DNA of 64,000 nt. Origin: Bryobacterales bacterium (lineage in GTDB: Bacteria; Acidobacteriota; Terriglobia; Bryobacterales; Bryobacteraceae). A model generated the notes under the pieces. It was given only the letters and a program-made list of their open reading frames with translations, made no database searches and had not been told where the DNA came from. Both the position numbers and the translations under genes were made by a program. Positions within the stretch are counted from its first letter, which is position 1; each line of letters opens with the position of its first letter. The DNA lies in NCBI GenBank assembly GCA_963818065.1, contig CAWFQW010000006.1:204139-268138 (forward strand), read 5' to 3'. Shown piece by piece: positions 1-57,048 of the stretch.

Positions 1-171
1 TCCCGAAAGCTGGGCGATGATGCGCGGTTCGGCCGTGCCGACGATGGTCTGATCGAGCGCGGCTAACAATACCGCCAGCAGCAGCCCGGTCATGGTCGCA
101 AACATTTGCGGACGCGTGAGCCGGATCAGGCCGGACGTATGGAATTTGGGCTCGACGGCGGAGGCGGCCAT
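1..171 (-). CDS. MFS transporter (DHA2/EmrB-like), first 57 codons only; gene runs off the window start
   Basis: Minus-strand ATG at 171-169. The translation MAASAVEPKFHTSGLIRLTRPQMFATMTGLLLAVLLAALDQTIVGTAEPRIIAQLSG has TM1 plus the LDxTIV motif typical of drug:H+ antiporter MFS N-termini. The frame stays open to position 1. It is absent from the ORF track because it is short and open-ended. Confidence 0.55.
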   Translation of the reverse strand, partial: MAASAVEPKFHTSGLIRLTRPQMFATMTGLLLAVLLAALDQTIVGTAEPRIIAQLSG

Positions 172-208
172 TCCTAATGTTATCCTTTTTGCCGGTGGCT
201 TTCTTGGC

Positions 209-656: not shown

Positions 657-657
657 G

Positions 658-1902: not shown

Positions 1903-1925
1903 GGGGGCCTACTTTTGTTTGAGGC

Positions 1926-8538: not shown

Positions 8539-8779
8539 GAAGGTTGTAGTTCAAAGTTCGTCCTTGATCTTTACTGTGCTTTCGATCATCCTGAACGTGC
8601 CGATCACTCGCGTAAAACGAAAGCCGGTGGGGCGGGAAGTGACGCGCACTGAACCGAGTGCCGCGACCGGATAGGGCGTGGCGGCTGAAGCCGACCCGCC
8701 GCGGCGGCCATAATAAATATAGACACCCAGCGTTAGTCGAACGCTGAGCTTGTAGGATTTTTCGATCAGCACGACAGTA

Positions 8780-35678: not shown

Positions 35679-35745
35679 GACGACCCTCGCCGGCGCACCA
35701 CTATTTCGCCGTGAAAGATCAAATCCTCGCCCGCCACCTCAATCG

Positions 35746-37632: not shown

Positions 37633-37763
37633 ACGGCCTCCTTATGGGCACACTTCATTGTAGGGACCGGTTTCTCGAGTCAAGCCAAGGGGTTTGGGCA
37701 TCACTCGCGCTGATTCGACTTGAACCGGCTGCAGCTCGCTCTGATATACATAACGTTCGCCTT

Positions 37764-39397
<1,634 letters not shown>

Positions 39398-39416
39398 TTT
39401 TCGTTAACATAACAAG

Positions 39417-39869
39417 GTGTCTGATTCCAAGACGGGACCCTTCGCGCCTCTGATCGGCGAGAAGGCGCAAGGATGCTGGCTTGGATACGGTTCTGTTCTA
39501 TTCCTAGAATTTGGCGAGCCCCAACCCCTGCAAGACGGATGGAGGCATTGTCATGGCGAGTGGAGCCTGTCATGCGACAAGATCCTTTGGCGGATCGAGC
39601 AAGGCAACCGTGTGCTGGCTGGTTCCGAAGATGACAGACCAGTAATGGAAGACGCGATTGAACAGCTAAACGGCCATATCCTCGTATCAGGTGAAATATC
39701 CGAATCGACTGGAGATTCACTCCTGGAGTTCACCGATCATGTCGTGCTCAAGACCTTCGTTATAACGTCCGAAGAAGACGCTCGTTGGAGTTTCAGATAT
39801 AGAGACTCCTATCTTGCCTTGGGACCGGAATTAGCGCCGTCGCGTGTAGATACCGATATTCAACCATGA
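39417..39869 (+). CDS. hypothetical protein, cassette paralog 1
   Basis: 150-aa ORF with a GTG start, 19 nt after the lctP stop. It is paralogous to the next ORF through shared R[IL]ExGxx[IV]LxGSxD...LxGxxL...GDxxLxF...SxEDxxW...LGP. No family recognised. Confidence 0.6.
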   Translation: MSDSKTGPFAPLIGEKAQGCWLGYGSVLFLEFGEPQPLQDGWRHCHGEWSLSCDKILWRIEQGNRVLAGSEDDRPVMEDAIEQLNGHILVSGEISESTGDSLLEFTDHVVLKTFVITSEEDARWSFRYRDSYLALGPELAPSRVDTDIQP

Positions 39870-40366
39870 CCCAGCGAGACGCGGAGGCGCTGCAGGAGTT
39901 TTCCAAAGTCCTCTGGGGAGCGACCATATCGCGGGTGAGGTTGTATATTTACCATGGCTTCGAAGAAGGCTACTCGCCAGAGGATCTCGAAGAATTGCGG
40001 CTCGATTTTCACGAACCTCTCCCCGTCCCTGAGAAGATCAGAAAACATCGACGAGTCGGTTCCATTTGGATCTCGGGCAACTGCCAGCCCAGGCTCGAGC
40101 GAGGGGGCAAGATTCTTGTCGGAAGCGGGGATTCAATCCCAAGAGTGCTAGAGCAGTTCCGCAAGATGGTTGGAGGACGGCTGCTGAAGATCGAAGTCCG
40201 CCCCCCGGCCGGCGACACCGCGCTCGTCTTCGAGAACGACCTGACCCTCAACTGCTTCCCCGCCAGGTCTAGGGAAGACGATTCATGGATTATCAGCGCT
40301 GAGGATGGAGACGAGGTGAAGCTTGGACCGGGCGCCCGCGTCACTTACCAGACCGGCCTGCGGTAG
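39866..40366 (+). CDS. hypothetical protein, cassette paralog 2
   Basis: 166-aa ORF whose ATG overlaps the upstream stop (ATGA). It is paralogous to the preceding ORF. Its stop lies 6 nt before repeat copy B. Confidence 0.6.
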   Translation: MTQRDAEALQEFSKVLWGATISRVRLYIYHGFEEGYSPEDLEELRLDFHEPLPVPEKIRKHRRVGSIWISGNCQPRLERGGKILVGSGDSIPRVLEQFRKMVGGRLLKIEVRPPAGDTALVFENDLTLNCFPARSREDDSWIISAEDGDEVKLGPGARVTYQTGLR

Positions 40367-40372
40367 AAAAGC

Positions 40373-40429
40373 GTGATCGGCTTGATCGCGCTGTTCTACA
40401 CGTCCGTAGCGCCCGGCTTGCAGCCGTAG
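40373..40429 (+). repeat. 57-nt direct repeat, copy B (orphan lctP 3' end)
   Basis: gtgatcggcttgatcgcgctgttctacacgtccgtagcgcccggcttgcagccgtag. It translates to VIGLIALFYTSVAPGLQP*. Four of its 5 differences from copy A are synonymous. Confidence 0.9.
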
Positions 40430-41849: not shown

Positions 41850-43979
41850 TTGATTCTTGTACAAAGGTTACTTGTGCCAATCGCGGCGCGTCTGCTCCCG
41901 TTCACATTGCTCGTCGCTGCCGGCATCGCGGGCGCGGCCCAGCAGCGCATTCCACGGCAGACGTTTCCGGCCACTGCAGCTGTACAAGGGATCGTCACCA
42001 CAGAACAGGGCCTCGGCCTCGGTGGCGTTGCGATTCTATTGCAGAACTTGACCACTGGCCGCAGCCTTTCGGCAATCACTGCGGGGGACGGCTCATTCCG
42101 CTTCTTGAATCTGGCGCCTGGTCGATATCAGGTGAAGGCGTCGCGCGATGGTTTCCTGCCCTTCGCGCAAGGCGACATAAATCTGGCCGCGGGTGACGTG
42201 TTCCCGCTGCAGTTCGCGATGGAAGCGATTCCATCGGGCTCCGAAGGCGTCCGCGAAATCCCGCGTCTGCCCGATCTCGGCCCCAAGCCTGCGGCCGCCC
42301 CCCAGCAACCCGCCGCATCGGGCCCGTATCGCAATTTACCCTCGCCGCCTCCGGCCTTGAGCGCGAGCGAGGCCAAGCCGCTATCGCCGCTGCCGACCGA
42401 CGATCAGGTCTTCAACGCCGTCCCGAATCGCTGGAACTATCCTTTCCCCGATTATCATCGCTACCCCGACGGCGAAGTCCCCTATACGAAAGGCCATTGG
42501 TACGATCCGTTCAATCTCAACAAGCTCAAAGGCGACCGGCCGATCATCGGAAACCAAACCTTCTTCGATTTCACCTTCACCAGCGACACCTTCACCGACG
42601 GCCGCCGTTTGCCGGTCGCAAGCGGCGTGAGCACGGCGAGCCCCGGTGAGACCCAGTTTTTCGGGCGCTTCGGCCAATTCCTGATGAGCGAAAACCTGGC
42701 GTTCTCCTTCGACTTGTTCCACGGCGACACGTCGTTCCGGCCAGCTGACTGGCGCATCCAGATCACGCCCGAAGTGAATATCAACTACCTGAAAGTGCAG
42801 GAAACCGGCGTCGTCAACTTCGATGTCCGCGATGGAACCACGCGGCTGGATTCGCACCTGGGTTTGCAGGAAGGCTTCGCCGAAGTGAAGCTGAAGGATC
42901 TGAGCAATCAGTTCGACTTCATCTCGCTGCGCGTGGGCATTCAGTCTTTCACCAGCGATTTCCGCGGCTTCATCTTCTCCGACCAGGAGCCCGGCGCGCG
43001 CCTGTTCGGCAACTTCGACTCCAACCGCTATCAATTCAACCTGGCCTATTTCGCCATGCTGGAAAAGGACACCAACAGCGGCTTGAATTCCATGGCTTAT
43101 CGCCAACAGCAGGTGATGATCGCCAATATCTATCGCCAGGATTTCATCAAGCCCGGTTACACGATCCAGGCGAGCTTCCATTACGACAAGGACGATCCGT
43201 CGTTTCAATACGACACCAATGATTTTCTGGTGCGCCCCGCCCCCATCGGCACAGTGCAGACGCACGCCATTCGTTCTTATTACTACGGGCTCACCGGCGA
43301 CGGCCACTTCGGAAAGCTGAATCTCACGCACGCGTTCTATCAAGTGCTGGGCCATGACAGCTTCAACGAGCTGGCCGGACGCCGCGTGGATATCAACGCG
43401 CAGATGGCCGCCGTGGAACTGTCGCTCGATAAGGATTGGCTGCGCTATCGGGTGTCGTTTTTCTACTCGTCGGGCGATAAAAATCCACGCTATGGAAGCG
43501 CACGCGGCTTCGACACCATCTTCGACAACCCGAATTTCGCGGGTGGCTTCTTCAGCCTGTGGGATCGCGAGGGCATCCCGCTCACCGGCACCGGCGTCAA
43601 CCTGGTGAATCCCGGGAGCCTGGTTCCGGATCTGCGCACCAGCAAGATCGAAGGGCAGGCGAACTACGTCAATCCCGGCTTGTTCCTATACAACGCGGGG
43701 GTGGACGTCGATCTCACGCCCAAGCTGCGCCTGTTCGTCAACGAGAATTTGCTGTTCTTCGCGCGCACCGACCCGCTGGAGCTGCTGCTGTTCCAATCCA
43801 ACATTCATACTGGCATCGGAGCCGACTCGGGCATCGGCCTTTCGTATCGTCCGCCGCTATCGGAAAATATCGTGATCACCGGCGGCGCGGATGCGCTGGC
43901 GCCATTTCAGGGCCTGCGCGATATCTCCACCAATCGAACCCTGCTCTCGGTCTTCGCGAACGTCCGCTTCCGATTCTAA
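41850..43979 (+). CDS. outer-membrane beta-barrel protein with N-terminal carboxypeptidase-regulatory-like domain
   Basis: 709-aa ORF. The signal peptide more likely begins at GTG 41874 (PIAARLLPFTLLVAAGIAGAAQQ). The CarboxypepD_reg pattern is GIVTT..G.GLGGVAILLQNLTTGRS..AITAGDGSFRFLNLAPGRYQV. The rest is a long Tyr/Phe/Asp-rich alternating sequence that ends ...VRFRF. Confidence 0.8.
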   Translation: MILVQRLLVPIAARLLPFTLLVAAGIAGAAQQRIPRQTFPATAAVQGIVTTEQGLGLGGVAILLQNLTTGRSLSAITAGDGSFRFLNLAPGRYQVKASRDGFLPFAQGDINLAAGDVFPLQFAMEAIPSGSEGVREIPRLPDLGPKPAAAPQQPAASGPYRNLPSPPPALSASEAKPLSPLPTDDQVFNAVPNRWNYPFPDYHRYPDGEVPYTKGHWYDPFNLNKLKGDRPIIGNQTFFDFTFTSDTFTDGRRLPVASGVSTASPGETQFFGRFGQFLMSENLAFSFDLFHGDTSFRPADWRIQITPEVNINYLKVQETGVVNFDVRDGTTRLDSHLGLQEGFAEVKLKDLSNQFDFISLRVGIQSFTSDFRGFIFSDQEPGARLFGNFDSNRYQFNLAYFAMLEKDTNSGLNSMAYRQQQVMIANIYRQDFIKPGYTIQASFHYDKDDPSFQYDTNDFLVRPAPIGTVQTHAIRSYYYGLTGDGHFGKLNLTHAFYQVLGHDSFNELAGRRVDINAQMAAVELSLDKDWLRYRVSFFYSSGDKNPRYGSARGFDTIFDNPNFAGGFFSLWDREGIPLTGTGVNLVNPGSLVPDLRTSKIEGQANYVNPGLFLYNAGVDVDLTPKLRLFVNENLLFFARTDPLELLLFQSNIHTGIGADSGIGLSYRPPLSENIVITGGADALAPFQGLRDISTNRTLLSVFANVRFRF

Positions 43980-44016: not shown

Positions 44017-44451
44017 ATGACAATTCCAGAACGATTTGGAAAAGGCATCAGCCGTCGTCAGTCGGGAATCCTTTGCCTCGCGCTGCTAATCGCGGGGCTG
44101 TTTACCGCAACTCCTGCAATCGCTCAAGGCTCAGGTTTCAAAATCGGGCCCATCGACAAAGGTTTGGTGGTGGGCGGTATCGTGGGGATTGCGGCGGTTG
44201 TAGCGGCTGCTATCGTGATCACTTACCTGGTCGTTCACAACCACGGAGCGGTCGTGGGCTGTATAGTCGAGTCCGGCGGGAAGAAAACTCTCGTTAGCTC
44301 CGACAAGAAAGTTTACTCGCTTGTTGACTCCGGCCCGCCGTTGCCCGTTGGTGAGCGTGCCAAGTTGAAAGGCCATAAATCGGGCCCGTCGTCGGCGCCC
44401 ACGTTCCAGGTCGTGAAGGTTTTGAAGGACTACGGCCACTGCCAACCTTAG
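44017..44451 (+). CDS. small membrane-anchored hypothetical protein
   Basis: 144 aa. It has a signal/anchor, a second hydrophobic helix (VVGGIVGIAAVVAAAIVITYLVV) and a roughly 70-aa C-terminal domain. It sits between the barrel gene and the giant cytochrome gene. Confidence 0.55.
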   Translation: MTIPERFGKGISRRQSGILCLALLIAGLFTATPAIAQGSGFKIGPIDKGLVVGGIVGIAAVVAAAIVITYLVVHNHGAVVGCIVESGGKKTLVSSDKKVYSLVDSGPPLPVGERAKLKGHKSGPSSAPTFQVVKVLKDYGHCQP

Positions 44452-44503
44452 GACCCCTTCTTCTAGATATCGATGACCACTCGTAGCGTTGCAATTGCTC
44501 TGA

Positions 44504-47500
44504 GTGTCAGCGGCGCTTGCGTCGCTTCTCTGCGCGCTGCTGCTCGGACAGCAATCGAGCCAATCACGCCTCGGCGAATCGCAAGAAGAGGCTGACCGCA
44601 ACAGCGTCGGCTGCGTCGCATGCCACGGCCAGACCGATTCCGCGTCGATGCACACCACGGGGACTGTTCGCTTGGGCTGTGTCGATTGCCACGGCGGCCA
44701 CGCCGGGGTCACGCCGCCCACTGGTGCCCAGAAAGGCTCGGCTGGCTATGACGAGGCCAAAAAAAAAGCGCATCCCAAACCCAGCGTCCCTGAGCTGTGG
44801 CGCAGTTCCGCCAATCCGGTTCGTCCCTTCACCGAATGGCTCAAGGAAACCAAGGAGTACATCCAATTCGTCAATCCGGGCGATCTGCGCGTGGCCGAAC
44901 AAACCTGCGGCTCCGGCGGCTGTCACGCCAAGGAAGTGCTCGCGGTCCGCACCAGCATGATGACCACCGGCGCCATGCTCTGGGAAGCGGCTCTCTACAA
45001 CAACGGCGGCTTTCCCTACAAGGACGCCCGCTTCGGCGAGAGCTATTCGCCGGACGGAGTGGCGCAACGCGTCAACACTTATCCGCCGCCGTCGCAGGAA
45101 CTAACTCGCACCAAAGGCGTGCTCCCGCACCTGGATCCGCTGGCGCGCTGGGAAGTTTCGCAGCCCGGCAATATTCTGCGCGTGTTCGAGCGGGGCGGGG
45201 GAGAGCGCTCCGAAGTCGGCATTCCCAACACTGAGGAAGATCCCGGGCGTCCCGACGTGAAGCTGAGCGAGCGCGGCCTCGGGACCGAGCTGCGGACCGA
45301 TCCGGTTTTTCTCGGGCTCCAAAAGACGCGCCTGCTCGATCCCATTCTCTCGATGCCCGGTACCAACGATCATCCCGGCGACTATCGCAACAGCGGCTGC
45401 ACGGCTTGCCACGTCATCTACGCCAACGATCGTTCGCCCATTCACTCCGGGCCCGTATGCCCAGTACGGCAATCAGGCGCACAGCGCCGAGATCGATCCC
45501 ACCATTCCGCACAACGAGTCCGGCCATCCCATCAAGCACGAGTTCACGCGCTCCATCCCCACCAGCCAGTGCATCGTGTGCCACATCCATCCCGGCACCA
45601 ACATGGTGGCGTCGTATCTCGGCTACATCTGGTGGGACAACGAAACCGACGCCGAGCACATGTATCCGAAGGAGCAGCACAATCCGTCGGATGAAGAGCG
45701 ATTCCAAGCGTGGCTCGCGAATCCGGAGAGCGCCGCCGCGCGCGGGCTCTGGAAGGATCTTTCGTTTCTCGAGAAAACCGGCAGCCCCGAGTTCAATCAG
45801 CAGCTCAAGCACACGCAGTTCGCCGATTTCCATGGCCACGGCTGGGTGTTTCGCGCCGTGTACAAGCGCGATCGCAAGGGCAACCTGCTGGATCCCGAGA
45901 GCCACGTGGTGCCTTCGGACGATAAGGACAAGTTTCAAAAATCAGTCCAGCTCCGCGACATCCATCTCGAGAAGGGCATGCACTGCACCGATTGCCATTT
46001 CGCGCAGGACAACCATGGCGACGGCAATCTCTACGGTGAGACGCGCAACGCGGTCGAGATCGATTGCGTGGATTGCCACGGCGCCATCTCGCACAAAGCG
46101 ACGCTGCGGACTTCAGCCGCGGCCGCGCCCGCCGGCGGCACCGACATCTCGTTGCTCCGCACTCCCTGGGGCCAGCGCCGCTTCTATTGGCAAGACGGAA
46201 AACTCTATCAGCGCTCCATGGTCGACAAGGACCGCGCGCCATGGGAAGTGGTGCAGGTGGTGGATACCATCACGCCCGGCAATCCGCACTACAACGAGAA
46301 GTCGCGGCTGGCCAAGACGATTCTGAAAGACGGGAACACCTGGGGCAGCGTGCCCGGCGACGAATCCACGCTGGCGCATTCCAACGAGCGCATGACCTGC
46401 TACGCCTGCCACACTTCCTGGACCACCAGTTGCTTCGGCTGCCATCTGCCGATGAGCGCAAACCGCAAGCTGCCCATGCTGCACAACGAAGGGCTGACCA
46501 CGCGCAACTACACCGCCTACAATTTCGAAGTGCTGCGCGACGACATTTACATGCTCGGCATTGACGGCACCGTCACCAAGCATCGCATCGCGCCCACGCG
46601 TTCCACCTGCGCCGTCGTCGTCAGTTCGCAGAACGCCAATCGCGACTGGATCTATTACCAGCAGCAGACGATTTCCGCGGAAGGCTTCAGCGGCTTCGGC
46701 GTTCAGCCCTTACTATCCGCACACCGTCCGCGCCACCGAAACCAAAACGTGTACCGATTGTCACGTCTCGCGCGAGGGCGACAACAACGCGTGGATGGCG
46801 CAGCTCCTGATGCAAGGGACAAATCTCGTCAATTTCATGGGACGTTACGTCTACGTGGCCGAAGGTTCCAAGGGCTTCGACGCCGTCGCCGTGGCCGAGC
46901 ATGACGATCCGCCCGCAGTGTTCGGAAGCGATTTGCAGAAGCTTGTCTACTCGAAGGACTACCAGGAAGTGGAGGAGCATCACGGCGAAATTCACGAAGC
47001 CGATCATCACGGGGGCAACGTCCTGGATCTCCAGTTGCGCGGCGAATATCTTTACGCGGCGTTGGGCAAGGACGGTTTCCGAGTCTACGATGTCGCGAAC
47101 ATCGATAACAAGGATTTCTCGGAGAAGATGACCACGGCGCCGGTATCGCCCTTGGGACAGCGGTTCTATGTGAAGACTAAGAACGCTACTGCGGTCGGTT
47201 CGCCATCGACGCTGGCCGTCGATCCCTTGCGCACCCGCATTCCAGCGAACGAAGAGCAGGCCATCGCGTTGATGTACGGATTCCTCTACGTAACCGACGC
47301 CGAAGAGGGGCTGGTGGTGATCGGCGATCCTGACCTTAAAAGCAAAGCTCCCGGCGTGCTCACGCTGCTGGACGGCAATCCTGCGAACAATTTCTTAAAA
47401 CGCGCCACAACATTTAACCCCAATAACGTCTTAAAGGGCGCTCGCCGGATCACTATCGCCGGAACCTATGCCTACATCCTTTGTGATCGCGGCTTGGTAG

Positions 47501-48189
47501 TGGTCAACATCGCCAATCCGCTCGCGCCCAAAGTGGAGTCTGAAATCGGGGCGCCCGATTTGGTCGATGCGGAAGGCATCGCCATCCAGTTCCGCTACGC
47601 TTTTGTCGTGGATCTCCAGGGACTGAAGGTTCTGGATGTCACCTCGCTCGCGCACCCGCGCGTGGTACAGGGCGCGAGTGTTCCGCTTGACGACGCCCGC
47701 AACATCTACATCGCTCGAACGTACGCCTACGTCGCCGGCGGCAAGCAGGGCCTGGTGATCATGGATGTGGAGCGCCCCGAGCACCCGCGCATCGAACAGG
47801 TATTCACCGCGGAGGGCGCCCTGAACGACACGCGCGATGTGAAGCTCGGCATGACCGCCGCCAGCGCATTCGCTTATATCGCCGACGGCCAGAACGGCAT
47901 GCGCATCGTGCAGTTGTTCGCGCCCAACGACACGCCCAATTACCTCGGCTTCAGCCCGAAGCCCACGCCCAGGCTGATCGCCACCTATCGCACCAAAGGC
48001 CCGGCGCTCGCGGTCTCCAAAGGCATCGATCGCGACCGCGCCGTCGATGAAGACGGCAATCAGCTCTCGGTCTTCAATCGCCGCGGCTCACGTCCCTTCA
48101 ATCGCGAGGAAGCACAACGCCTGTATCTAAAGAACGGGCAGGTGTTCACTGTGACGAACGATCCGCCGGGCCCGGCGAGCAACAAGTAG
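44504..48189 (+). pseudogene. giant multiheme c-type cytochrome fused to an LVIVD-repeat beta-propeller (about 1200 aa), 2 frameshifts
   Basis: ORFs 44504..45694, 45576..46904 and 46561..48189 are colinear. Heme motifs are CVACH, CVDCH, CGSGGCH (CX4CH), CTACH, CIVCH, CTDCH, CVDCH, CYACH, CFGCH and CTDCH. The C-terminal roughly 450 aa carries repeats of the G[LF]xV[IVL]DV..P..P type ([51 protein letters not shown]). The shifts are near 45454 and 46700. A possible upstream ATG at 44473 lies in another frame. Confidence 0.8.
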
Positions 48190-48194
48190 CGCGA

Positions 48195-49442
48195 CTATTC
48201 CGCCAACTGTTTGAGGCTATATTTCCCGACGACCGGCTTTTCCTTGCTCCAATCGTGATACGCGTGGCATTCGAAGCAGCGCGCTTCCGCCGCGTCGGGT
48301 CCAGCGCGATGGCATTGCCGGCAGGTCTGAATACCAGGGATCAGCACGTCGGACGTCTCTTGGCTATCCTTCGCCTTCGCGTGACAGGACGCGCATTGCA
48401 GCATCTGATGCGCTTGGTGATCGAAATTCGCGTGCGGCAGCCATCGCGCTGTAATCGCGGCCTTCGCGACCACCGGCAAAATGCTGGGGCCGTCAAGATA
48501 ACTCAAGGTATGGCATTCCTTGCACGATTTTCGCCACAGCAGCAACTGCGCGTCGGTCATGCGCTGCTGGACCCACTCGGCGGCGCTGCGCGCGGGCGGT
48601 TGCGGAGGACGGGTCGGCAGTCGCTTATCAGGTTCGTCTACTAAAGGAATCTCCGCCGGATGCGCCGCGATGTATGCAGTCAGCTTCGCGAACACGAAAT
48701 CGTAGACGACTTTCGGATCCTTGTGCGGCGCCGACTCGCTGAAGCGCCTATCAAATTGCAGCGGGTGGCATGAGGCGCAATGCTTCTCGTAATTGACCGG
48801 CGTCATGTATGGGCGACCGGACGAACCGGACGTCTGGTGGCAATCGGCGCACTTCAACTGCACCGGCCCGGTCGGACCGCGTAGGTCCTCTTTCAGATGC
48901 ACGCGATGGTTGAACTTGATGGTCCCGGGATCCGTCGCGCCCGGCCGCAGCGGGGCGAATTCAGGATGGCTGCGGTCGAATGCACGAATGCTCGAAGCGA
49001 ATTTCGATGTCCCGTGCGTGGTCTTCAAATCCGCATGGCACTGCGTGCAGGCCGCATCGCCGGTGCTTGCCAGCCGAAACGCACCCTGGTGCTCCACATG
49101 GCAGCTTGAGCAGGATGGCGTGAAGGTTTGGTCCGCGTGATGGATCGGGCCATCGTGACACGCCAGACACGCCTGGTCCGTCGCGCTTTGACGATAGCTC
49201 GCATCGGAAACGTGACATACTACGCACTTCTGGCCAAGCAGCGCGTGCGCGTGAGCGAGCGGCCCGGCGTTGTAGGGCTTCGGACTGCCGACCAGCGCGA
49301 ACCATCCCAGCCAGACTAGGCCAACCAGCACAAACGCGCCTGACAGAATCCGCCGCCAGCGTGGAATACCGCGGAGCGCTTTGAAATAGTTTAAATCGAT
49401 CCGCTGCGCGAGCTTCTTGGTGGTGCGTGTGCGTCCCGCCAT
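48195..49442 (-). CDS. membrane-anchored decaheme c-type cytochrome (cytochrome c3-family-like)
   Basis: 415 aa. One N-terminal TM helix (ILSGAFVLVGLVWLGWFALVG). Ten CxxCH motifs: CVVCH, CLACH, CSSCH, CTQCH, CADCH, CASCH, CKECH, CASCH, CRQCH, CFECH. Confidence 0.9.
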   Translation of the reverse strand: MAGRTRTTKKLAQRIDLNYFKALRGIPRWRRILSGAFVLVGLVWLGWFALVGSPKPYNAGPLAHAHALLGQKCVVCHVSDASYRQSATDQACLACHDGPIHHADQTFTPSCSSCHVEHQGAFRLASTGDAACTQCHADLKTTHGTSKFASSIRAFDRSHPEFAPLRPGATDPGTIKFNHRVHLKEDLRGPTGPVQLKCADCHQTSGSSGRPYMTPVNYEKHCASCHPLQFDRRFSESAPHKDPKVVYDFVFAKLTAYIAAHPAEIPLVDEPDKRLPTRPPQPPARSAAEWVQQRMTDAQLLLWRKSCKECHTLSYLDGPSILPVVAKAAITARWLPHANFDHQAHQMLQCASCHAKAKDSQETSDVLIPGIQTCRQCHRAGPDAAEARCFECHAYHDWSKEKPVVGKYSLKQLAE

Positions 49443-49445
49443 GCC

Positions 49446-50306
49446 TTAATATCTCAGCGCCATCACGGCGTGGACGCCGCCCAAAACAAGCAGCGCGATC
49501 GAAAGAGGAACGTGCACCAGCAGCCACGCATGCAGCCAGCGATAGATGCGAATCTGACGGCTCAACTGCCGCTCTTCCTCGCAGATGTTTTCCAGATCGT
49601 CCAGGACTCCATGCACCGGCTCAGCCAGCAGCCGCCGCAAAGCTTCAAACGTTTCCCCGGAGCGCAATCGATCGCTCAGCTCCGCCGTGGGTGTATCGGG
49701 GTCGGCCAGATACGGCCGGACCTTGCGAAGATAGACTTCGCGAAAGCGTTCGCGATCCTCGTGCTCGATCTCGACCAGTGCAATCTCCGCTCCCACGCCA
49801 CCCACCGGACCACAAATTGCAGCGGCAAGTTGATCGGCTTCTTCTCGAAGCTGCGCGCGCACATGCGGGATCTCCTCATAGATAGTCTCCAGCGGCACAC
49901 GCGACATCATGAAGCTGGGCACATAATGCTGGATCGCGGCTCCCAGAATGCCGCTGCCGATTACGATGAAGAACAGCAACATCAGCACCAGCGTCAGCGG
50001 TCCGCGAAAGGCGAAGCCACCGTGAAAAAGAATCAGGAGCAAACTCAGCAGACCCAGCCATAGGTGCCCGCGCATCCAAGTTTGGGCGCGTCCGATGCGC
50101 CAGGTCGGAACTTGTTTGCGCGCGCCCAGGAGTCCCGCGTACAGCATCAGCCCATAGCCGGCGATTCCGAATGTTAGCCCCATCGCGCTTCCGCCGCGCG
50201 GTCCGGAGGGAGTGTCGACCGAGTAGACGACGTACGCTACGCAGCTCACGATCGCGAGCACAATAGTTGCGATCACCCAGGGACGGTGTGTCCGGTCGAT
50301 CCGCAT
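49446..50306 (-). CDS. 5-TM His-rich membrane protein (candidate b-heme subunit)
   Basis: 286 aa. Four N-terminal TM helices, a roughly 110-aa soluble insert, and one C-terminal TM helix. Histidines within TM segments: GHLWLGLLSLLLILFHGG, AAIQHYV, LHAWLLVHVPLSIALLVLGGVHAV. A GAGG SD is present. It lies 3 nt upstream of the decaheme gene. Confidence 0.7.
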   Translation of the reverse strand: MRIDRTHRPWVIATIVLAIVSCVAYVVYSVDTPSGPRGGSAMGLTFGIAGYGLMLYAGLLGARKQVPTWRIGRAQTWMRGHLWLGLLSLLLILFHGGFAFRGPLTLVLMLLFFIVIGSGILGAAIQHYVPSFMMSRVPLETIYEEIPHVRAQLREEADQLAAAICGPVGGVGAEIALVEIEHEDRERFREVYLRKVRPYLADPDTPTAELSDRLRSGETFEALRRLLAEPVHGVLDDLENICEEERQLSRQIRIYRWLHAWLLVHVPLSIALLVLGGVHAVMALRY

Positions 50307-50315
50307 CGCGCCTCG

Positions 50316-52469
50316 CTAGTTTCTCCGCGGCTGGTTGGCAAGAGGCGTGCCCACCCAGCGGAAAAATTCGTTGGGCTCCACGCGATGCGCCGCGTCATGC
50401 GGGCACGCATACACGCAACTGGGCTCGGCGAGATCGGTGCATAGATCGCACGAGGTCGCCTTCTGTTTGACCACGGCCATCTGGCGTCCCGCGTTCGCGG
50501 GATCGTTTTCCATCACCGTGAACGGATGCATGTTGATATTTCCGTACGGGCAATTCTTCGCGCACAGGCCGCATCCGATGCACCAATTCTCGATGATCAC
50601 TTCGAGCGAATTGCGCCGGCGAATCGACCCGACCGGACAACCGATCATGCACAACGGATCCCTGCAATGGCGGCAGGACGTGGCCACCAGATATTTGTCG
50701 AAACGCTGGCCTTCGCGGATCAGCCGGGTTACTCCATCGTGAGCATCGGCACACGCGCGCACGCAGGCATCGCAACGCGTACAGCGCTCCAGATCCATCA
50801 CCAGCAGGCTCTGCGCTTCCATCAATCCTTGGGCCAGGAACGAATCCAGTGGCATGCTGGTCGCGGTAGCCAGGCGCTGCCGGTTCTGCTCTTGCCGCTC
50901 GCGCACCAGGGTCTCCAGGCTCCGGCGCACTTCAGGGAATCGCTCCACCATGCGGTGAAATTCCTCGCCGTGAATGCGCACCAGCTCCACGTGATCGAGC
51001 GCTGTGCAGGTGGCCGTTCGGATTCCGCCACCCAGCAATCCGATTTCGCCGAAGTATCCGCCGCGTCCCAGGTACGCCAGCACCAACTCGCCGCCAGGAT
51101 GCCCTTCCGACACTTTCACGAACCCGAGGCGAATCACGTAGAAGCTGTCCGCGATGTCGCCCTGCCGGCAAATCACGTCGCCCTTGGTGTAGCGCACCAG
51201 CTCCACCTTGTCGCGCAAGGTGTCGATGAACTCCGGATCCAGCGATGCAAACATAGGAACGCTGCGTAGATGATCGTCGAGTGCGCGGCGGCGATAGTTG
51301 GCGTCGAGCTGGGCTTTTAGTGTTTTGTTGCGCTGGATAATATCGAGCACGTTGCGCAGCATTTCAAACATCACGCAGTCGGTGGCCGCGCGTACCGTTG
51401 CCGAGCGCGGATACAGACTCATGCATGTCATTTCGCCGAATAGATCGCCGGGGCCGAGCGTGGCCACCGGATGGTCATAGGGCAAATCCACGGGCGCGTC
51501 AATGGGAATGGTTTCGCGCCGGCCCTCTTCGGAGCGGCTTTCCTGCTGGCGTCCAAATAGGCGGCTGGTCATCTTGCCGAGGAAACCAGTACCGTGACGT
51601 TCGGTATTCACGTGCGCCATCGGCGTCGAGAGAAACACTTCGGCTTGGCCTTCCAGGATGTAAAACGCCGTGGAACCGTACTCGCCCTCGCGGCAAACGA
51701 TCTCACCCTTGCGGAAGTGCCGGCGAACGACGGCATTCTTATTCAATTCGAGAAACGTTCCCGAGACCTTCTGGAAGTAAGAGAGCCGCTGCAGTTCGTC
51801 GATGTCCACCGGCTCGCCGGGCAGAACCGTTTTCACCACACTCTTGTTGGTGAGGGCGCCGGTGGGGCACGACACCATGCACTCGCCGCAGGACACGCAG
51901 GAGGAATTGCCCATCGGCAGATTGGTGTCGAACGCGATGCCCGCGAGGAAGCCCTTACCGCGTCGCCCCAATACATCGTTATGGCGGATTTCGTCGCAAC
52001 CGCGAATGCAGCGATCGCACAAAATGCAGGCCTCGTGATCAACCGCGATCACCAGCGACGAATTGTCCTGGCCGCGTGCGGAGATTTTGCGCGGGAAACG
52101 CGGTTCGCCGATGCCTTCGAGGCGCGCCAGAGTTTCCAATTCGCAGTCGTTCGATTGCCGCTGGCGAGCGCAGGGGCTGGGATGATCCGCCATCAGCATT
52201 TCCACGAGCGTCCGGCGTGCACGTAACACTCGCTCGGAATTGGTGCGCACCACCATATTGTTCTCGGCGGGCCGCACGCACGAGGCTGCCAGTACCCGAG
52301 CTTTCTCTAGGTCAACCACGCACACGCGGCACACGCCGACGGGCGTTTCGTTCTGCTGATGGCACAGCGTGGGGATTGCGATGCCGTGGATGCGCGCCGC
52401 GTCGAATACGCTGGTTCCTTCGGGCACCGAAATCGCTTGGCCGTCGATGCTGAGTTGAACGTCGCTCAT
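50316..52469 (-). CDS. Fe-S protein: NuoG-N-terminal-like [2Fe-2S]/[4Fe-4S] domains + two cNMP-binding domains + four-cluster ferredoxin domain
   Basis: ATG at 52469 forms an ATGA overlap with the upstream stop; ORF 50316..52493 begins at a TTG. N-terminus: C-x11-C-x2-C-x13-C, CILCDRCIRGC and CVSCGECMVSCP. Middle: two CAP-type cNMP domains (FGEMTCMSLYPRSATVRA; YFGEIGLLGGGIRTATCTA). C-terminus: CTRCDACVRAC, CRHCRDPLCMIGCP, CIGCGLCAKNCP and CDLC-x7-CVYACP. Confidence 0.85.
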   Translation of the reverse strand: MSDVQLSIDGQAISVPEGTSVFDAARIHGIAIPTLCHQQNETPVGVCRVCVVDLEKARVLAASCVRPAENNMVVRTNSERVLRARRTLVEMLMADHPSPCARQRQSNDCELETLARLEGIGEPRFPRKISARGQDNSSLVIAVDHEACILCDRCIRGCDEIRHNDVLGRRGKGFLAGIAFDTNLPMGNSSCVSCGECMVSCPTGALTNKSVVKTVLPGEPVDIDELQRLSYFQKVSGTFLELNKNAVVRRHFRKGEIVCREGEYGSTAFYILEGQAEVFLSTPMAHVNTERHGTGFLGKMTSRLFGRQQESRSEEGRRETIPIDAPVDLPYDHPVATLGPGDLFGEMTCMSLYPRSATVRAATDCVMFEMLRNVLDIIQRNKTLKAQLDANYRRRALDDHLRSVPMFASLDPEFIDTLRDKVELVRYTKGDVICRQGDIADSFYVIRLGFVKVSEGHPGGELVLAYLGRGGYFGEIGLLGGGIRTATCTALDHVELVRIHGEEFHRMVERFPEVRRSLETLVRERQEQNRQRLATATSMPLDSFLAQGLMEAQSLLVMDLERCTRCDACVRACADAHDGVTRLIREGQRFDKYLVATSCRHCRDPLCMIGCPVGSIRRRNSLEVIIENWCIGCGLCAKNCPYGNINMHPFTVMENDPANAGRQMAVVKQKATSCDLCTDLAEPSCVYACPHDAAHRVEPNEFFRWVGTPLANQPRRN

Positions 52470-54154
52470 GCGCGCACCTCGCGCATGGGACAAACGCCTT
52501 CCGGACAGCGGTGCTCGCGAACGTGCGCGTCCAATTCATCGCGGAAATGCAGCAGGACCGAGCTGAGCGGTGAGTGCGCGAATTGGCCGAGCCCGCAGAT
52601 GGACGTCAGCTTCAGCGCCTCGGTGAGGTCGTCGATCAGCGCCATATCGGCGGAAGATCCTTGGCCGCGCGTCCAGCCGGTCAGGATGTCCACCATCTTC
52701 TGCGAGCCCGTGCGGCACGGGACGCACTTGCCGCAGGATTCGTTGCGGAAGAATTTCACCGCGTTCAATGCCATGTCGAGCATGCATCGCCCTTCGGCGC
52801 AGACCACAATAGCGCCGGAGCCGAGCATCGATCCGACTGCGGCCAGTGATTTGAAATCCAGTCGCACGTCTACCATCGAAGCCGGCAAGTATCCCGACGA
52901 AGGCCCAGACGGAGCGAAAGCCTTCAACTGTTTGCCGTCCACGATGCCGCCTGCCAGGTTGAAGATCACCTCCGACATCTGCAGACCCATCGGGATTTCG
53001 AACACGCCTGGACGGCGCACGTCCCCGCTGACGCCGACGAACTTCAGTCCGGCCGCGCCGCCTTGTCCCTGGGCTTTGTACCACTCCACGCCGTTTACCA
53101 AAATCTGCGGCACATTGGCGAAGGTCTCGACGTTGTTCAGCGCGGTCGGCTTATTGAACACGCCCTGGTGCACGGGGAAAGGCGGTTTATTGCGAGGCTC
53201 GGCGCGCTTGCCTTCGATGGCTTCGATGAGCGCGCTCTCTTCACCGCAAATGTATCCGCCCGGGCTCACGAACAGCTCCAGGTCGAACGTGAGGCCCGAT
53301 CCCAACACGCTCGGCCCAAGAATCCCCGACGCGTAACAGCGCTCGATCTCTTCGTGCAGAACCTTCTCTTGCGCGTGATACTCGTGCCGGATATAAAGGA
53401 TACCTTTTTCGGCGCCAGTCACCAGTCCAGCGATGATCATGCCCTCAATCACCAGGTTCGGGAGATTGCCCATGATGAAACGATCCTTAATGGTGCCAGG
53501 CTCGCTCTCATCGGCGTTGCAGACCACGTATTTTTCGGGACCCGGCGCCCGGCGAACGGCCTCCCACTTCATGCCGGTGGGAAATCCTGCGCCGCCCAGT
53601 CCGCTCAACCCGCTAGCCTTCAATTGCGCGATCGTGCCGTCCCAATCGCGCGTGGCCGCCAGCATTCGCAAGGCACCGTAGCGCTCGGCGCTCAGGTACG
53701 GGTCGGATGTCAGATCCGCCGTCTTTTCTTCGGCGGACATTTCGGGAAGCTCGTTCCCGCCTAGGGCCGTCAGCACCAGCGCTTCGGCCTGAGCCACAGT
53801 GACGCCGCGATAAATATGATCGTTGATCGAAACCGCCGGAGCGCCGTCGCACTGTCCGAGGCATGAGATGTCGCGGATGGCAACGTCTTCCCCGCTCATC
53901 CCGCGGAAGCGTTGTTCCAAGCCGGCGCGAAGATTGGCGGCGCCCCGCAGATGGCACGACATGTCCGCACAGACGCCCGCAGCCACTCTGGGCGGCCGCG
54001 TCAGATGGAAGTGGGGATAGAAATCGGCGACCCCGTGAATGCGATACAAAGGCGTGTTGGTACGTTCGGACAGCGCTGCTAACTGTTCGCCCGGTAGATA
54101 ACCGTACTGACTCTGAATCGCTCTGAGGTCGTCAAAAATCAACGGTTCGTACAT
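52466..54154 (-). CDS. fused NuoE-like/NuoF-like NAD(P)H-oxidising flavoprotein
   Basis: Intact 562-aa ORF. NuoE-like part: CADMSCHLRG...CLGQCDGAPA (thioredoxin-like 2Fe-2S). NuoF-like part: GLGGAGFPTGMKW, CNADESEPGT, YICGEESALIEAIEG and ESCGKCVPCR (FMN, NADH and 4Fe-4S motifs). Confidence 0.9.
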   Translation of the reverse strand: MYEPLIFDDLRAIQSQYGYLPGEQLAALSERTNTPLYRIHGVADFYPHFHLTRPPRVAAGVCADMSCHLRGAANLRAGLEQRFRGMSGEDVAIRDISCLGQCDGAPAVSINDHIYRGVTVAQAEALVLTALGGNELPEMSAEEKTADLTSDPYLSAERYGALRMLAATRDWDGTIAQLKASGLSGLGGAGFPTGMKWEAVRRAPGPEKYVVCNADESEPGTIKDRFIMGNLPNLVIEGMIIAGLVTGAEKGILYIRHEYHAQEKVLHEEIERCYASGILGPSVLGSGLTFDLELFVSPGGYICGEESALIEAIEGKRAEPRNKPPFPVHQGVFNKPTALNNVETFANVPQILVNGVEWYKAQGQGGAAGLKFVGVSGDVRRPGVFEIPMGLQMSEVIFNLAGGIVDGKQLKAFAPSGPSSGYLPASMVDVRLDFKSLAAVGSMLGSGAIVVCAEGRCMLDMALNAVKFFRNESCGKCVPCRTGSQKMVDILTGWTRGQGSSADMALIDDLTEALKLTSICGLGQFAHSPLSSVLLHFRDELDAHVREHRCPEGVCPMREVRA

Positions 54155-54196: not shown

Positions 54197-55501
54197 ATGA
54201 AACCGGCACCGGGCATCCAACTGCTTCTGGGCGCGCTCCTGGCGGTCCGCTGCCTGATGGCCGCCGATAGCGCGGAGTCTTCGAAATACACCGGACCAGG
54301 CTCCTGCAGTTCCCCCAGTTGCCACGGCGGCGTACAAGCGCGCGATCAGACCACAGTGCTGCAGAACGAGTACAGCACCTGGGTGGTGCGCGATAAACAC
54401 GCGCATGCATTTTCGAATCTCACCAATCCGGTTGGGACACGCATCGCCAAAATCATGGGACTGCCGAGTCCCGACACGGCGCCGCGCTGCCTGGCTTGCC
54501 ATGCGCTGGATGTTCCGGCCGATCAGCGCGCCCGCACCTTCGACCTCACCGACGGCGTGGGATGCGAGAACTGCCACGGCCCAGCGTCGGCATGGCTGGG
54601 GCCGCACACCACGCGCGGCTGGAAGTACGAAAAATCGCTCGAGTCGGGACTGTACGATACACGCGATCTGGTGAAGCGCTCCGAAAAATGCCTCAGCTGC
54701 CACCTTGGGACGCCGGAAAAGATGGTGGATCACGAACTGATCGCCGCGGGCCATCCCGATCTGTACTTCGAGCTTGATTCGTTCATGTCGGTGATGCCGC
54801 CGCATTGGAAGGAAGTGGACACCGACCCGTGGTTCGCGGTCCGCGCTATGGCTGTGGGGCAAGCCGTGCAGTTGCGTGAGCAGCTTAAGCGCGTGGCGCG
54901 CGAGTCGCAAGGCGGCATCTGGCCGGAATACGCGGAGCTGGATTGCTTCGCTTGTCACCACAACCTGACTGCCGCGAAAGACAGCTGGCGGCAGGAGCGA
55001 GGGTACACCGGCCGGCGTCCCGGCAATCCGCCGTTCAACCTGTCGCGCTACGTGGTGTTCAAGCACGTGATCCAGGACTCCGATCCCGGGGCCGTTCGCG
55101 ATCTCGAGGCTGGGATCAAGCAGGTCTACGCGGGCGTCACCGCGCTGAATTCGGATCGCCGTCAAGTGGCCATGGAAGCAACCGGCGCGTCGGAGCTGGC
55201 GGGGAGATTGGCGCAACGTTTGAACGGGATGAAATTCGATCCGCCTCAAACGTTGCGTTTGTTGAAGAGCATCGCCGCCGATGGCGACGGAATCGCCGAG
55301 CAAGGTGAGCGCGCGGCCGAGCAAGCCACCATGGCGCTGGATTCGCTGTTCATCGCGTACTCGAAGAACGACAAGCTCGGCAACGAGGCGCAGATTCGAG
55401 CCGGCATTAACGGACTGTTCCAGCAACTGGACGATCCGTCGTTGTTCAACGGCTTCAAGTTCGCCGCGGCAATGAAGAATCTGAGTTCGTTGCTGCCATA
55501 G
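54197..55501 (+). CDS. periplasmic multiheme c-type cytochrome (cytochrome c554-family-like) with helical C-terminal domain
   Basis: 434 aa with a signal peptide. Heme motifs are CSSPSCH (CX4CH), CLACH, CENCH, CLSCH and CFACH. Confidence 0.85.
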   Translation: MKPAPGIQLLLGALLAVRCLMAADSAESSKYTGPGSCSSPSCHGGVQARDQTTVLQNEYSTWVVRDKHAHAFSNLTNPVGTRIAKIMGLPSPDTAPRCLACHALDVPADQRARTFDLTDGVGCENCHGPASAWLGPHTTRGWKYEKSLESGLYDTRDLVKRSEKCLSCHLGTPEKMVDHELIAAGHPDLYFELDSFMSVMPPHWKEVDTDPWFAVRAMAVGQAVQLREQLKRVARESQGGIWPEYAELDCFACHHNLTAAKDSWRQERGYTGRRPGNPPFNLSRYVVFKHVIQDSDPGAVRDLEAGIKQVYAGVTALNSDRRQVAMEATGASELAGRLAQRLNGMKFDPPQTLRLLKSIAADGDGIAEQGERAAEQATMALDSLFIAYSKNDKLGNEAQIRAGINGLFQQLDDPSLFNGFKFAAAMKNLSSLLP

Positions 55502-55509: not shown

Positions 55510-57048
55510 ATGCCGTTAGCGCGAACCATCTCCATGTTGACGTTAGCGGCCTGGATCTGTCTTGCGCAGGCACCGCCGCGTCCGCCGATTCATCACCGTC
55601 CGCTTCCGGACCCACCGTCGCTGGTCGATCCCGTGCTGTTGACGTCCGCTGATGTCGCGAGAGTGGTGGAAGTTGCCGCATCATCCGTGAATTCCGATGC
55701 GATGGTGATCGCGGTCACGGATCGCCAGGGCAATATTCTCTCGATTTATCAAAAACCGAACGCGCCGGCCACGGCGCTCGCCAATTTTGGAGTGCAGGCG
55801 GACACGCAAGAAGTAGCCGTAGCGCTCGCGCGGACTGCGGGGTTCTTCAGCAACGATCAAGCGCCGCTTTCCTCGCGGACCGTGCGCTACATCAGCGGCA
55901 TTCACTTTCCGCCAGGAATCAATTTTACGGCCAACGCCCCGCTGTACGGCATCGAGAACACCAATCGCGGCTGCCCCTTCAACGCCGCTTACATCCTGGG
56001 CCAGGAGTTTCCGGCAGCGCGTTCCATCGATGGGTCGACCACCGGCCTCGGCATTCTTACCGGAAAAGCGAATCTCTACGACAGCGATCCCATCGCAGTG
56101 AATCCAGGCGGAGTTCCACTGTACAAACAAGGCGTGCTGGTTGGTGGAGTCGGCGTGGCAGGCGTCGCGGCCGATGTCGCGGAGTTCGCGGCGTTCTCGG
56201 GAGCGGTTGGTGCGGGTTTCGGTGCGAATCCAGCGCCGCCAGGCGTGGTCATCATTAATGGCATCGCGGTGCCCTTCGTCAATCAGACGACTCGGCCCGC
56301 TGGATATGGCGCGGGGTCAGCGGACGGGATGTATGTGTTGGGTCCGCTCGCGAGTCTGAAAGCTCCACCCGAGGGTAATCTGGTTGCGCCGCGCGCGGGT
56401 CCCATTGGCGGCCTGACCGCGGACGAAGTGGAGAGCATCGTTAACGCGGCCACAGCCGAAGCCAATCTCACACGCGCCGTGATCCGATTGCCGATTGGCG
56501 CGCGGACGCGCATGACGATCGCAGTCGCCGATCTGGACGGCACGATCATCGCGCTGTATCGTATGGCCGATGGCACCGTGTTCAGTATCGACGTCGCGGT
56601 GGCGAAAGCGCGCAACGTGATTTTCTTTAGCGGACCTAATCGTACGGCCAGTGATTTGCCGGGTGTGCCGATGGGCACCTCGGTTACTAATCGGACCATA
56701 GGCTTCGGCGGCCAGCCGATTTATCCGCCGGGAATCGACGGCTCGGGGCCAGGTCCTTTTTTTCAGCTCTATCAATTCGACACGCTGAATCCGTGCACGC
56801 AAGGATCGCAGTCGGCGAATCCGAATCAAAACGGCATCGTCTTTTTCCCCGGCTCGCTTCCGCTGTATAAGAACGGAGTGCTGGTGGGTGGCCTGGGCGT
56901 GAGCGGCGATGGCGTGGATCAAGACGATTTCGTGACTTCCGCGGGTGCGGCCGGATTCGATGCGCCCACCAACATCCAAGCCGATCAAATCATCGACCAA
57001 GGCGTGCGGCTGCCGTACCTCAAGTTTCCGCGCAACCCTACGGATTGA
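55510..57048 (+). CDS. secreted protein with two tandem GlcG/HbpS-like (DUF336) domains
   Basis: 512 aa with a signal peptide. Two copies of the DUF336 signature are present (GGVPLYKQGVLVGGVGVAGV... and GSLPLYKNGVLVGGLGVSGDGVDQDD), each preceded by a T..DV..VV......A......MVIAV.D..G-type segment. Confidence 0.8.
   Translation: MPLARTISMLTLAAWICLAQAPPRPPIHHRPLPDPPSLVDPVLLTSADVARVVEVAASSVNSDAMVIAVTDRQGNILSIYQKPNAPATALANFGVQADTQEVAVALARTAGFFSNDQAPLSSRTVRYISGIHFPPGINFTANAPLYGIENTNRGCPFNAAYILGQEFPAARSIDGSTTGLGILTGKANLYDSDPIAVNPGGVPLYKQGVLVGGVGVAGVAADVAEFAAFSGAVGAGFGANPAPPGVVIINGIAVPFVNQTTRPAGYGAGSADGMYVLGPLASLKAPPEGNLVAPRAGPIGGLTADEVESIVNAATAEANLTRAVIRLPIGARTRMTIAVADLDGTIIALYRMADGTVFSIDVAVAKARNVIFFSGPNRTASDLPGVPMGTSVTNRTIGFGGQPIYPPGIDGSGPGPFFQLYQFDTLNPCTQGSQSANPNQNGIVFFPGSLPLYKNGVLVGGLGVSGDGVDQDDFVTSAGAAGFDAPTNIQADQIIDQGVRLPYLKFPRNPTD

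Follow-up and report, generated by a model that had tools for sequence, protein, structure and literature searches.

A gene at 44473–48189 on the plus strand of the 64,000-nucleotide stretch of Bryobacterales contig CAWFQW010000006.1 analysed here ('the window') encodes, once three inserted bases are removed, a protein of 1237 amino acids in which a ten-haem cytochrome domain is fused to an LVIVD-type beta-propeller. We propose, with a probability of roughly 0.55, that this Sec-exported protein and the barrel-like protein encoded directly upstream of it form the outer module of a trans-envelope electron conduit, and that the breaks in the reading frame of the gene are sequence errors. The conserved fusion, and the redox neighbourhood that accompanies it in several phyla, are more informative than the frame breaks, while the function that we attach to them is hypothetical.

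Reconstruction of the fusion gene

The gene is present in the window as three colinear open reading frames (ORFs) on the plus strand (44504–45694, 45576–46904 and 46561–48189; frames 2, 0 and 1, modulo 3), each of which is shifted by +1 relative to the preceding one, with the handover from frame to frame located by six-frame translation. Alignment of the DNA with three intact orthologous loci (L001 and L002, with 84–85% nucleotide identity to the window, and L004, with 90%) revealed exactly three extra single bases, each corresponding to a one-nucleotide gap in every one of those loci; all remaining indels are multiples of three. The first is an extra T at 44522 (GCTTGCG[T]CGC), the second an extra C in GGGCCCG (45452–45454) and the third an extra base in TTCGG[C/G]GTTC (46699–46701). 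In protein alignments, the junction at the second site reads RSPIHSGPYA in all homologues, and the homologues continue across the third in one frame.

Removal of the three bases produces an ORF of 3714 nucleotides with no internal stop. The repaired protein is 92% identical to an intact homologue of 1246 residues (P0001), and its best segment reaches 95% identity in L004. The preliminary description of this DNA had joined the three fragments into one protein, as is borne out by the continuous 1237-residue ORF and by intact homologues of ∼1240 residues. Both of the frameshifts that it reported are confirmed by the DNA alignment, at 45454 and 46699, but the total is three rather than two. The third accounts for what had been described as an ambiguous N-terminus: the single-base insertion at 44522 cuts the ATG at 44473, where the gene starts, off from the remainder of the gene, the frame slipping after codon 16. 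The repaired N-terminus, MTTRSVAIALSVSGACALLCALLLGQQ, agrees in length and pattern with that of the homologue P0002, MTTRSVTIGVGVSGAAALLCALLLGQQ.

Anatomy of the fusion protein

The repaired N-terminal sequence given above constitutes a predicted Sec-type signal peptide (residues 1–27; 44473–44554), as judged from the sequence and from the aligned N-termini of homologues. It is followed by the multihaem domain (residues 28–790; 44555–46845) and by the LVIVD beta-propeller (residues ∼791–1200; 46846–48075), the latter identified by Pfam PF08309, an AlphaFold2 (AF2) model and Foldseek; all three lie on the plus strand.

A motif scan located ten haem-binding motifs on the plus strand, at 44612, 44678, 44906 (CGSGGCH), 45398, 45570, 45984, 46065, 46398, 46431 and 46750. 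Recounted in the repaired protein, these comprise nine CxxCH motifs and the one CX4CH motif, CGSGGCH, exactly as first tallied, and all fall within residues 47–763, a density far beyond chance. Across 36 full-length relatives, some of them only 41–57% identical, the ten motifs and 13 further histidines are each at least 90% conserved, and there are therefore enough histidines for bis-histidine ligation of all ten haems. The third site has the CX4CH form in many members of the family and is a plain CxxCH in P0062, P0100 and other homologues, which points to a true haem site enlarged by two inserted residues. CxxCK is absent from the fusion protein, as are other unusual motifs for a proximal haem ligand, and the cysteines outside the haem motifs and the signal peptide are all isolated. 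By motif count, signal peptide and conservation, this is predicted to be an exported multihaem c-type cytochrome.

The repeats that had been recognised by eye as LVIVD-like in the C-terminal region were upheld, not rejected, by the profile search: PF08309 (cut-off 20.2 bits) matched the third fragment in five stretches with 84.8 bits (E = 2.4e-24) and the repaired protein with 74.3 bits. In structure prediction from an alignment of 74 close homologues, the predicted local distance difference test (pLDDT) score of the haem domain was below 50; with a diverse alignment that included distant relatives, the model of a homologue that is 77% identical (P0100) reached a mean pLDDT of 73 and a predicted template modelling score of 0.79, with most of the propeller region at 80–97. 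The DSSP strand pattern of that model is consistent with some seven blades, with closure by the strands after haem 10, so that the modelled propeller is probably seven-bladed. The top Foldseek matches in the PDB are beta-propellers (template modelling score up to 0.68, normalised on the target) and include 6-phosphogluconolactonase, a BtuG-type surface lipoprotein, AztD and NirN; all are generic beta-propellers, which we take from their entries to be seven-bladed. Among the 36 full-length relatives, the propeller has no conserved histidine, cysteine or methionine and has many conserved aspartates, glutamates, asparagines and arginines. The last haem motif, haem 10, directly precedes the first propeller strands.

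Distribution of the family

The fusion protein has at least 8000 matches in a collection of 5.8 billion proteins. The best of them are intact, 1233–1261 residues long and 87–92% identical, and come mostly from metagenome-assembled genomes (MAGs) of Bryobacteraceae and other Acidobacteria. A confirmed relative was found in at least 534 species-representative genomes (534 among the first 600 pattern matches), and the best 80 loci of the species-genome scan belong essentially all to Acidobacteriota. In a search of representative clusters for which the middle 420 residues of the protein served as the query, 1488 fifty-percent-identity clusters were matched at E ≤ 1e-3 and 297 at E ≤ 1e-30.

Distant full-length representatives (1090–1702 residues, 39–60% identity) retain ten haem motifs with one exception, and LVIVD repeats are present in six of the seven that were scanned. 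A search seeded with the most distant representative returned members labelled Thermoanaerobaculia, candidate division KSB1, Candidatus Wallbacteria and Nitrospirota. The combination of a decahaem domain with an LVIVD propeller, as originally proposed for the window protein, is thus kept in thousands of homologues from several phyla, and both the fusion and the ten haem sites are retained at identities as low as ∼40%, in lineages that include KSB1, Wallbacteria and Nitrospirota.

Two individual groups of sequences deserve separate mention. One family member of 1648 residues (P0148) has 28 CxxCH motifs, with extra c7/c3-type modules placed N-terminal to the conserved decahaem-LVIVD core. Two MAGs labelled Bordetella (L032 and L036) carry a copy of the fusion gene that is 73–75% identical; it is surrounded by a full acidobacterial-type neighbourhood in L036, and on the short contig of L032 it is accompanied by the barrel gene only. 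These labels are probably binning or taxonomy errors.

The barrel-like partner

The gene directly upstream of the fusion gene (41850–43979, plus strand) encodes a protein with a signal peptide, a CarboxypepD_reg domain (Pfam PF13620) and a C-terminal region of ∼520 residues that ends in VFANVRFRF. In 78 of 83 loci, an orthologue likewise lies directly upstream in the same orientation; of the five other loci, four have too little upstream sequence to tell. Over residues 186–709, the protein shares 50–54% identity with the upstream gene products of the Wallbacteria and KSB1 loci. The C-terminal region is free of cysteine and has an aromatic C-terminal signature, and its VFANVRFRF ending looks like that of outer-membrane proteins. 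Searches of the PDB and Pfam returned no barrel match, and a crude scan for amphipathic beta-strands, which found only six segments, was uninformative.

Between the barrel-like and cytochrome genes of the window lies an ORF of 144 amino acids (44017–44451, plus strand) with a signal-like N-terminus, two hydrophobic segments and a weak coding score. It is found only in the window and in its closest relative, L004 (81% amino acid identity); elsewhere the two genes abut.

A conserved redox neighbourhood

Six further genes are located within 10 kb of the fusion gene in 48–52 of the 83 loci. Four of them are encoded on the minus strand of the window. The first (48195–49442; in 49 of the 83 loci and in L084–L086) specifies a membrane-anchored decahaem cytochrome of 415 residues, with one N-terminal transmembrane helix and ten CxxCH motifs. 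The second (49446–50306) encodes a protein with five transmembrane helices and two histidine pairs, H81/H95 and H265/H279, each with the spacing H-x13-H. The third (50316–52493; in 49 of the 83 loci and in L084–L086) encodes a cytoplasmic iron-sulfur (FeS) protein that combines a 2Fe-2S/4Fe-4S part resembling HoxU and the N-terminus of NuoG, three stretches predicted to bind cyclic nucleotide monophosphates (cNMPs) and a HydN-like dicluster ferredoxin. The fourth (52466–54154; in 50 of the 83 loci) encodes a NuoE-NuoF fusion, a module that binds flavin mononucleotide and NADH, for which no match was found in the KSB1, Wallbacteria or L084 loci. The remaining two genes are on the plus strand and encode secreted proteins: a C554-like pentahaem cytochrome (54197–55501; in 52 of the 83 loci and in L084–L086) with a CX4CH motif of its own (CSSPSCH), and an HbpS-like protein (PF03928; 55510–57048; in 48 of the 83 loci and in L085 and L086) with no match in the L084 locus.

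The two H-x13-H pairs of the five-helix protein lie within transmembrane helices and are conserved in 50 homologues, down to 27% identity (a range that includes 27–42%); H7, H127 and H259 are also conserved. Paired transmembrane histidines of this kind are a sign of dihaem b-type proteins, known from the cytochrome b561 and ferric-reductase families. The orthologue in L084 scores 27.6 bits on the Pfam Ferric_reduct model (cut-off 28), a match to DUF4405 is weak, and a PDB search gave nothing useful. On these features, the protein is a probable dihaem-b transmembrane electron carrier.

In the KSB1 and Wallbacteria loci, the distant homologues are likewise accompanied by the barrel-like gene and by every cluster gene but that for NuoEF. 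Four of the cluster genes are present in the L084 locus, where the gene upstream of the fusion gene (1010 amino acids) does not match the barrel.

Since a CX4CH motif occurs in the C554-like cytochrome (CSSPSCH) as well as in the fusion protein (CGSGGCH), such sites appear to be matured by the organism in at least two proteins of this locus. A gene for an NDH-2-type oxidoreductase with a C-terminal cNMP-binding domain (57023–58653, minus strand) is also present; together with the cNMP domains of the FeS protein, it suggests cyclic-nucleotide control of several redox enzymes.

Proposed function and an enzymatic alternative

In the conduit that we propose, electrons would enter from cytoplasmic NAD(P)H or FeS proteins (the NuoEF-like protein and the HoxU/HydN-like protein with its cNMP domains) and would pass to the dihaem-b membrane protein, then to the membrane-anchored periplasmic decahaem cytochrome, then to the C554-like pentahaem cytochrome and finally to the decahaem-propeller protein, which, associated with the barrel, would be the outermost module of a trans-envelope electron chain. 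Because haem 10 stands immediately before the first propeller strands, the wire would end at the propeller, and because the propeller lacks conserved cofactor ligands, it is most plausibly a docking module, which may bind a partner protein or an acceptor outside the cell, for instance a mineral, a metal ion, or organic matter that is humic or particulate. The preliminary description had already suggested a binding module attached to an electron wire; both of these features fit that suggestion, and a suggestion is what it continues to be. What the analysis establishes is the structure of the gene, its motifs and domain, their conservation and the synteny; localisation, complex formation, the direction of electron flow and the substrate we infer.

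A number of observations weigh against this reading. The family is known from sequence alone and has no named function (the only names on its members are 'hypothetical protein' and 'LVIVD repeat'), and the upstream protein is a putative, probable outer-membrane beta-barrel. The haem domain has no significant match to MtrC or OmcA (PF22113, 17.7 bits against a cut-off of 30). Both top-50 Foldseek lists consist of propellers only, with no match to the haem domain among them. The best PDB matches of the haem domain, obtained with a diverse profile, are weak ones to enzymes (an octahaem nitrite reductase at E = 2.7e-4 and NrfA at E ∼ 0.3); with a profile of close homologues there was no match at E ≤ 1, and all Pfam and NCBIfam multihaem models remained below threshold on the fusion protein. 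The haem density, at ∼1.3 per 100 residues, is low, and suits an enzyme as well as a wire. Known outer-surface cytochromes have lipoprotein signal peptides; that of the window protein is type-I-like (...ALLCALLLGQQ) and is not a canonical lipobox. Lipoprotein signal peptides, with LWGC, LASC, LIGC or IIGC, are found in several distant members of the family, and these, like the NVRFRF ending of the barrel-like protein, are hints of localisation in favour of the conduit. Lastly, the three frame breaks may be a real and very recent triple frameshift, the remaining alternative to the view of them that we develop below.

Some of these points would equally suit a different function, that of a periplasmic multihaem oxidoreductase in which the decahaem domain would supply electrons to, or withdraw them from, a catalytic site located in the propeller or at one special haem. 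The site would act on a soluble substrate such as a nitrogen, sulfur, selenium or metal oxyanion, after the fashion of cd1 nitrite reductase, hydrazine synthase or octahaem nitrite reductase. The weak PDB matches, which consist of two colinear stretches in the octahaem nitrite reductase together with NrfA, point in that direction, as do weak NCBIfam matches to the octahaem tetrathionate reductase family, NrfA and Geobacter ExtM, but the scores for all of these enzyme families lie far under their cut-offs. The low haem density and the atypical CX4CH of the third site are compatible with an enzyme, yet that site is an ordinary CxxCH in many homologues, and neither CxxCK nor any other unusual proximal-ligand motif is present to mark a catalytic haem. 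NirN, which Foldseek lists, is itself a protein of c-type haem plus propeller; against a catalytic site of this sort stand the lack of conserved histidine, cysteine and methionine in the propeller and the 13 conserved histidines, which suffice for bis-histidine ligation at all ten haems. The conserved partner of the protein is, moreover, a probable outer-membrane barrel. On balance we regard an oxidoreductase as doubtful and favour the electron conduit.

The neighbourhood also permits a broader proposal, which we make only tentatively: an undescribed trans-envelope redox module of seven to eight genes, present in several phyla, of which the fusion protein would be the terminal component. Its parts would be the barrel, the decahaem-LVIVD propeller protein, the C554-like pentahaem cytochrome, the HbpS-like protein, the transmembrane decahaem cytochrome, the dihaem-b protein and the cNMP-regulated FeS protein, to which a NuoEF unit would have been added in Terriglobia. 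Such a module would take electrons from cytoplasmic donors (NAD(P)H, or donors of the ferredoxin type) through the two membranes and bypass the quinone pool.

Origin of the frame breaks

The three breaks are, most likely by a wide measure, consensus or assembly errors. We read them in this way because recA in the same window is broken as well, because the pattern of the breaks is uniform and consists of insertions only, and because selective constraint on the fusion gene is intact. The ratio of nonsynonymous to synonymous substitution rates (dN/dS; Nei-Gojobori) between the repaired gene and its L004 orthologue is 0.053 (dS 0.43), the corresponding ratio of proportions (pN/pS) is 0.05–0.08 in the segments after each break, and ratios of the dN/dS type against five other orthologues range from 0.047 to 0.070. 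Selection on these comparisons is strongly purifying and gives no sign of relaxation.

The survey of frame breaks elsewhere compared the window from 33 to 58 kb with L004, L008 and L077. The recA gene (35715–36804, plus strand) is broken by a single-base insertion at 35969, with positions 59–262 of the Pfam RecA model and RecA_C in one frame and the N-terminal part in another. The lactate permease gene (37734–39397, plus strand) is divided among three frames by two breaks, of which that at 38104 is an isolated insertion and that at ∼38606 sits within a run of small indels. The NDH-2-type gene has single-base insertions at 57355 and 57437 relative to L004. Eight breaks could be compared with L004. 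Each of them moves the frame by +1, seven as isolated insertions of one base, and there is no isolated deletion. Given that recA and other genes of the window contain similar +1 insertions, the frameshifts are not peculiar to the fusion gene. For regions outside the L004 comparison, a codon-usage scan and Pfam were used to spot breaks: a cytidine/tRNA deaminase domain (53–1140, plus strand) is in two frames, split at ∼390, an Rce1-like CAAX protease gene (1127–1908, minus strand) is in three frames, and in a PAS/GAF-GGDEF-EAL gene (8756–11531, plus strand) the PAS segment is probably separated from GAF-GGDEF-EAL at ∼9470.

An orthologous fusion gene in a public MAG (MFD04540.bin.2.84; L077, 9905–13635) is split into two overlapping ORFs, so breaks of the frameshift type at this locus occur in public assemblies too. 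Several of the genes next to that split copy are likewise fragmented.

A true pseudogene, inactivated by three independent frameshift mutations and now decaying, would be in keeping with three breaks in a single 3.7-kb gene and with the presence of breaks in several other, non-essential genes of the window, as in a genome undergoing reduction. We consider it improbable. The preliminary description had named stops that remain after correction as the sign of a pseudogene, and there are none in the repaired ORF, nor is there any further lesion once the three bases are removed; the ratio of 0.05–0.08 holds even downstream of the breaks; recA, broken in like manner, is among the affected genes; all of the L004-verified breaks shift the frame by +1, unlike the bias towards deletions that is typical of bacterial pseudogenes; and the L077 orthologue is similarly divided in a public assembly. 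Programmed +1 ribosomal frameshifting or phase variation, by which the frame changes would be regulatory and read through, would explain the shared +1 direction of the three shifts and is rejected as next to untenable, because every homologue examined is single-frame across the sites, with conserved residues on both sides, and the sites, which lie outside repeat tracts, share no slippery motif, while like insertions occur in unrelated genes including recA.

Sequence error is thus the explanation that we adopt. In the organism itself the fusion gene is almost certainly unbroken, and it is typical of its family. For the window as a whole, this would mean frequent single-base insertion errors and fragmented gene calls.

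Other features of the window

Directly after the stop codon of the lactate permease gene is a segment of ∼975 bp (39398–40371) with two ORFs that have no Pfam or NCBIfam match. It is absent from L004, L008, L014 and L077, and is flanked by a 58-nucleotide direct repeat of the 3' end of the permease gene (39340–39397 and 40372–40429, 91% identical), an arrangement suggestive of a small element that inserted at the end of that gene. A stretch of ∼925 bp (33882–34806), between the genes for an acyl-CoA ligase and a DASS-family symporter, has no counterpart in L004, where its flanks are ∼27 bp apart.

Significance

Acidobacteriota are dominant in many soils and peats, and how they respire where oxygen or soluble acceptors are scarce is an open question. 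The family described here has members in at least 534 species genomes; purifying selection on it is strong, and its synteny with a barrel and a redox chain that runs from the cytoplasm to the periplasm is conserved across phyla. If the conduit is real, it would provide a directly testable candidate for the reduction of humic substances, minerals or metals by these bacteria, and would exemplify a haem wire with a binding propeller fused at its end. Should the quinone-independent module prove correct, it would represent a regulated route to extracellular acceptors, or for reductive iron acquisition, in soil and peat Acidobacteriota.

Comparison with known systems

Among enzymes, the octahaem nitrite reductase TvNiR gave the best PDB sequence match: its residues 12–71 and 370–425 resemble two colinear stretches of the haem domain, which cover haems 1–2 and the H...CxxCH...CxxCH unit of haems 6–7, and residues 248–327 of NrfA resemble the haem 6–7 stretch. 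The E-values of the single stretches are 0.14–0.63, as against 2.7e-4 for the whole sequence, and TvNiR has eight haems whereas the window protein has ten, an additional propeller and no CxxCK. Membership in the NrfA family was rejected (NCBIfam model, 8.5 bits against a cut-off of 595), as was membership in the octahaem tetrathionate reductase family, whose NCBIfam score was far below the cut-off. The best NCBIfam match is Geobacter ExtM (NF040943), a cytochrome of a selenite/tellurite reduction operon, over the haem 6–7 region; scoring 63.7 and 27 bits where 800 are required, it was also rejected, and the likeness is one of shared haem-packing motifs only.

The cd1 nitrite reductases NirS/NirN and hydrazine synthase (described in PMC12758564) also combine c-type haem domains with a beta-propeller. 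Their propeller holds a cofactor or lines a substrate tunnel, and they have one or two c-type haems, whereas the window protein has ten haems and a propeller devoid of conserved metal or cofactor ligands. The definition of LVIVD repeats comes from surface proteins of archaea and bacteria (Adindla et al. 2004, PMC2447325), and the C-terminal 400 residues of the window protein resemble these, well above the PF08309 threshold. In the literature covered, which excludes most subscription journals, we found no description of an LVIVD–multihaem cytochrome fusion or gene cluster.

EET1, a gene cluster of peat Acidobacteriota that encodes a porin, an NHL beta-propeller scaffold and a cytochrome c (Fiorito et al. 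2026, bioRxiv 10.64898/2026.05.27.727921), comes from the same phylum and habitats and likewise brings together a barrel, a propeller and a multihaem cytochrome, proposed to act in extracellular electron transfer. Its propeller is a separate, six-bladed NHL/DUF5128 protein, whereas that of the window is of the LVIVD type and fused, and its cytochrome is small and haem-dense, unlike the haem-sparse decahaem protein of the window. The search for extracellular electron transfer in that study prioritised small, haem-dense cytochromes; its passages on a propeller concern the separate NHL protein only, LVIVD is absent from its main text and supplements, and 'carboxypeptidase' is absent from its main text (bioRxiv 10.64898/2026.05.27.727921).

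The MtrCAB and porin–cytochrome complex (PCC) conduits (Shewanella MtrC/MtrB; Geobacter Omb/Oma/Omc) afford the final comparison. Matches of the family to the MtrC/MtrF domain II/IV model are sub-threshold, and membership in the MtrC/OmcA family was rejected on the PF22113 score and for want of a PDB match, there being no MtrC, OmcA or MtrB chain among the PDB sequence matches (for MtrC and OmcA, at E ≤ 10). MtrC also differs in having no fused beta-propeller, and the place of a CymA-type quinol dehydrogenase is taken in the window by a module of the FeS/NuoEF kind together with a dihaem-b-like membrane protein. The layout is nevertheless alike: a secreted ten-haem cytochrome of ∼700 residues is encoded beside a large outer-membrane barrel, a probable one in the window, and additional multihaem cytochromes, periplasmic or anchored in a membrane, are encoded close by. 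Some distant members of the fusion family are, in addition, lipoproteins.

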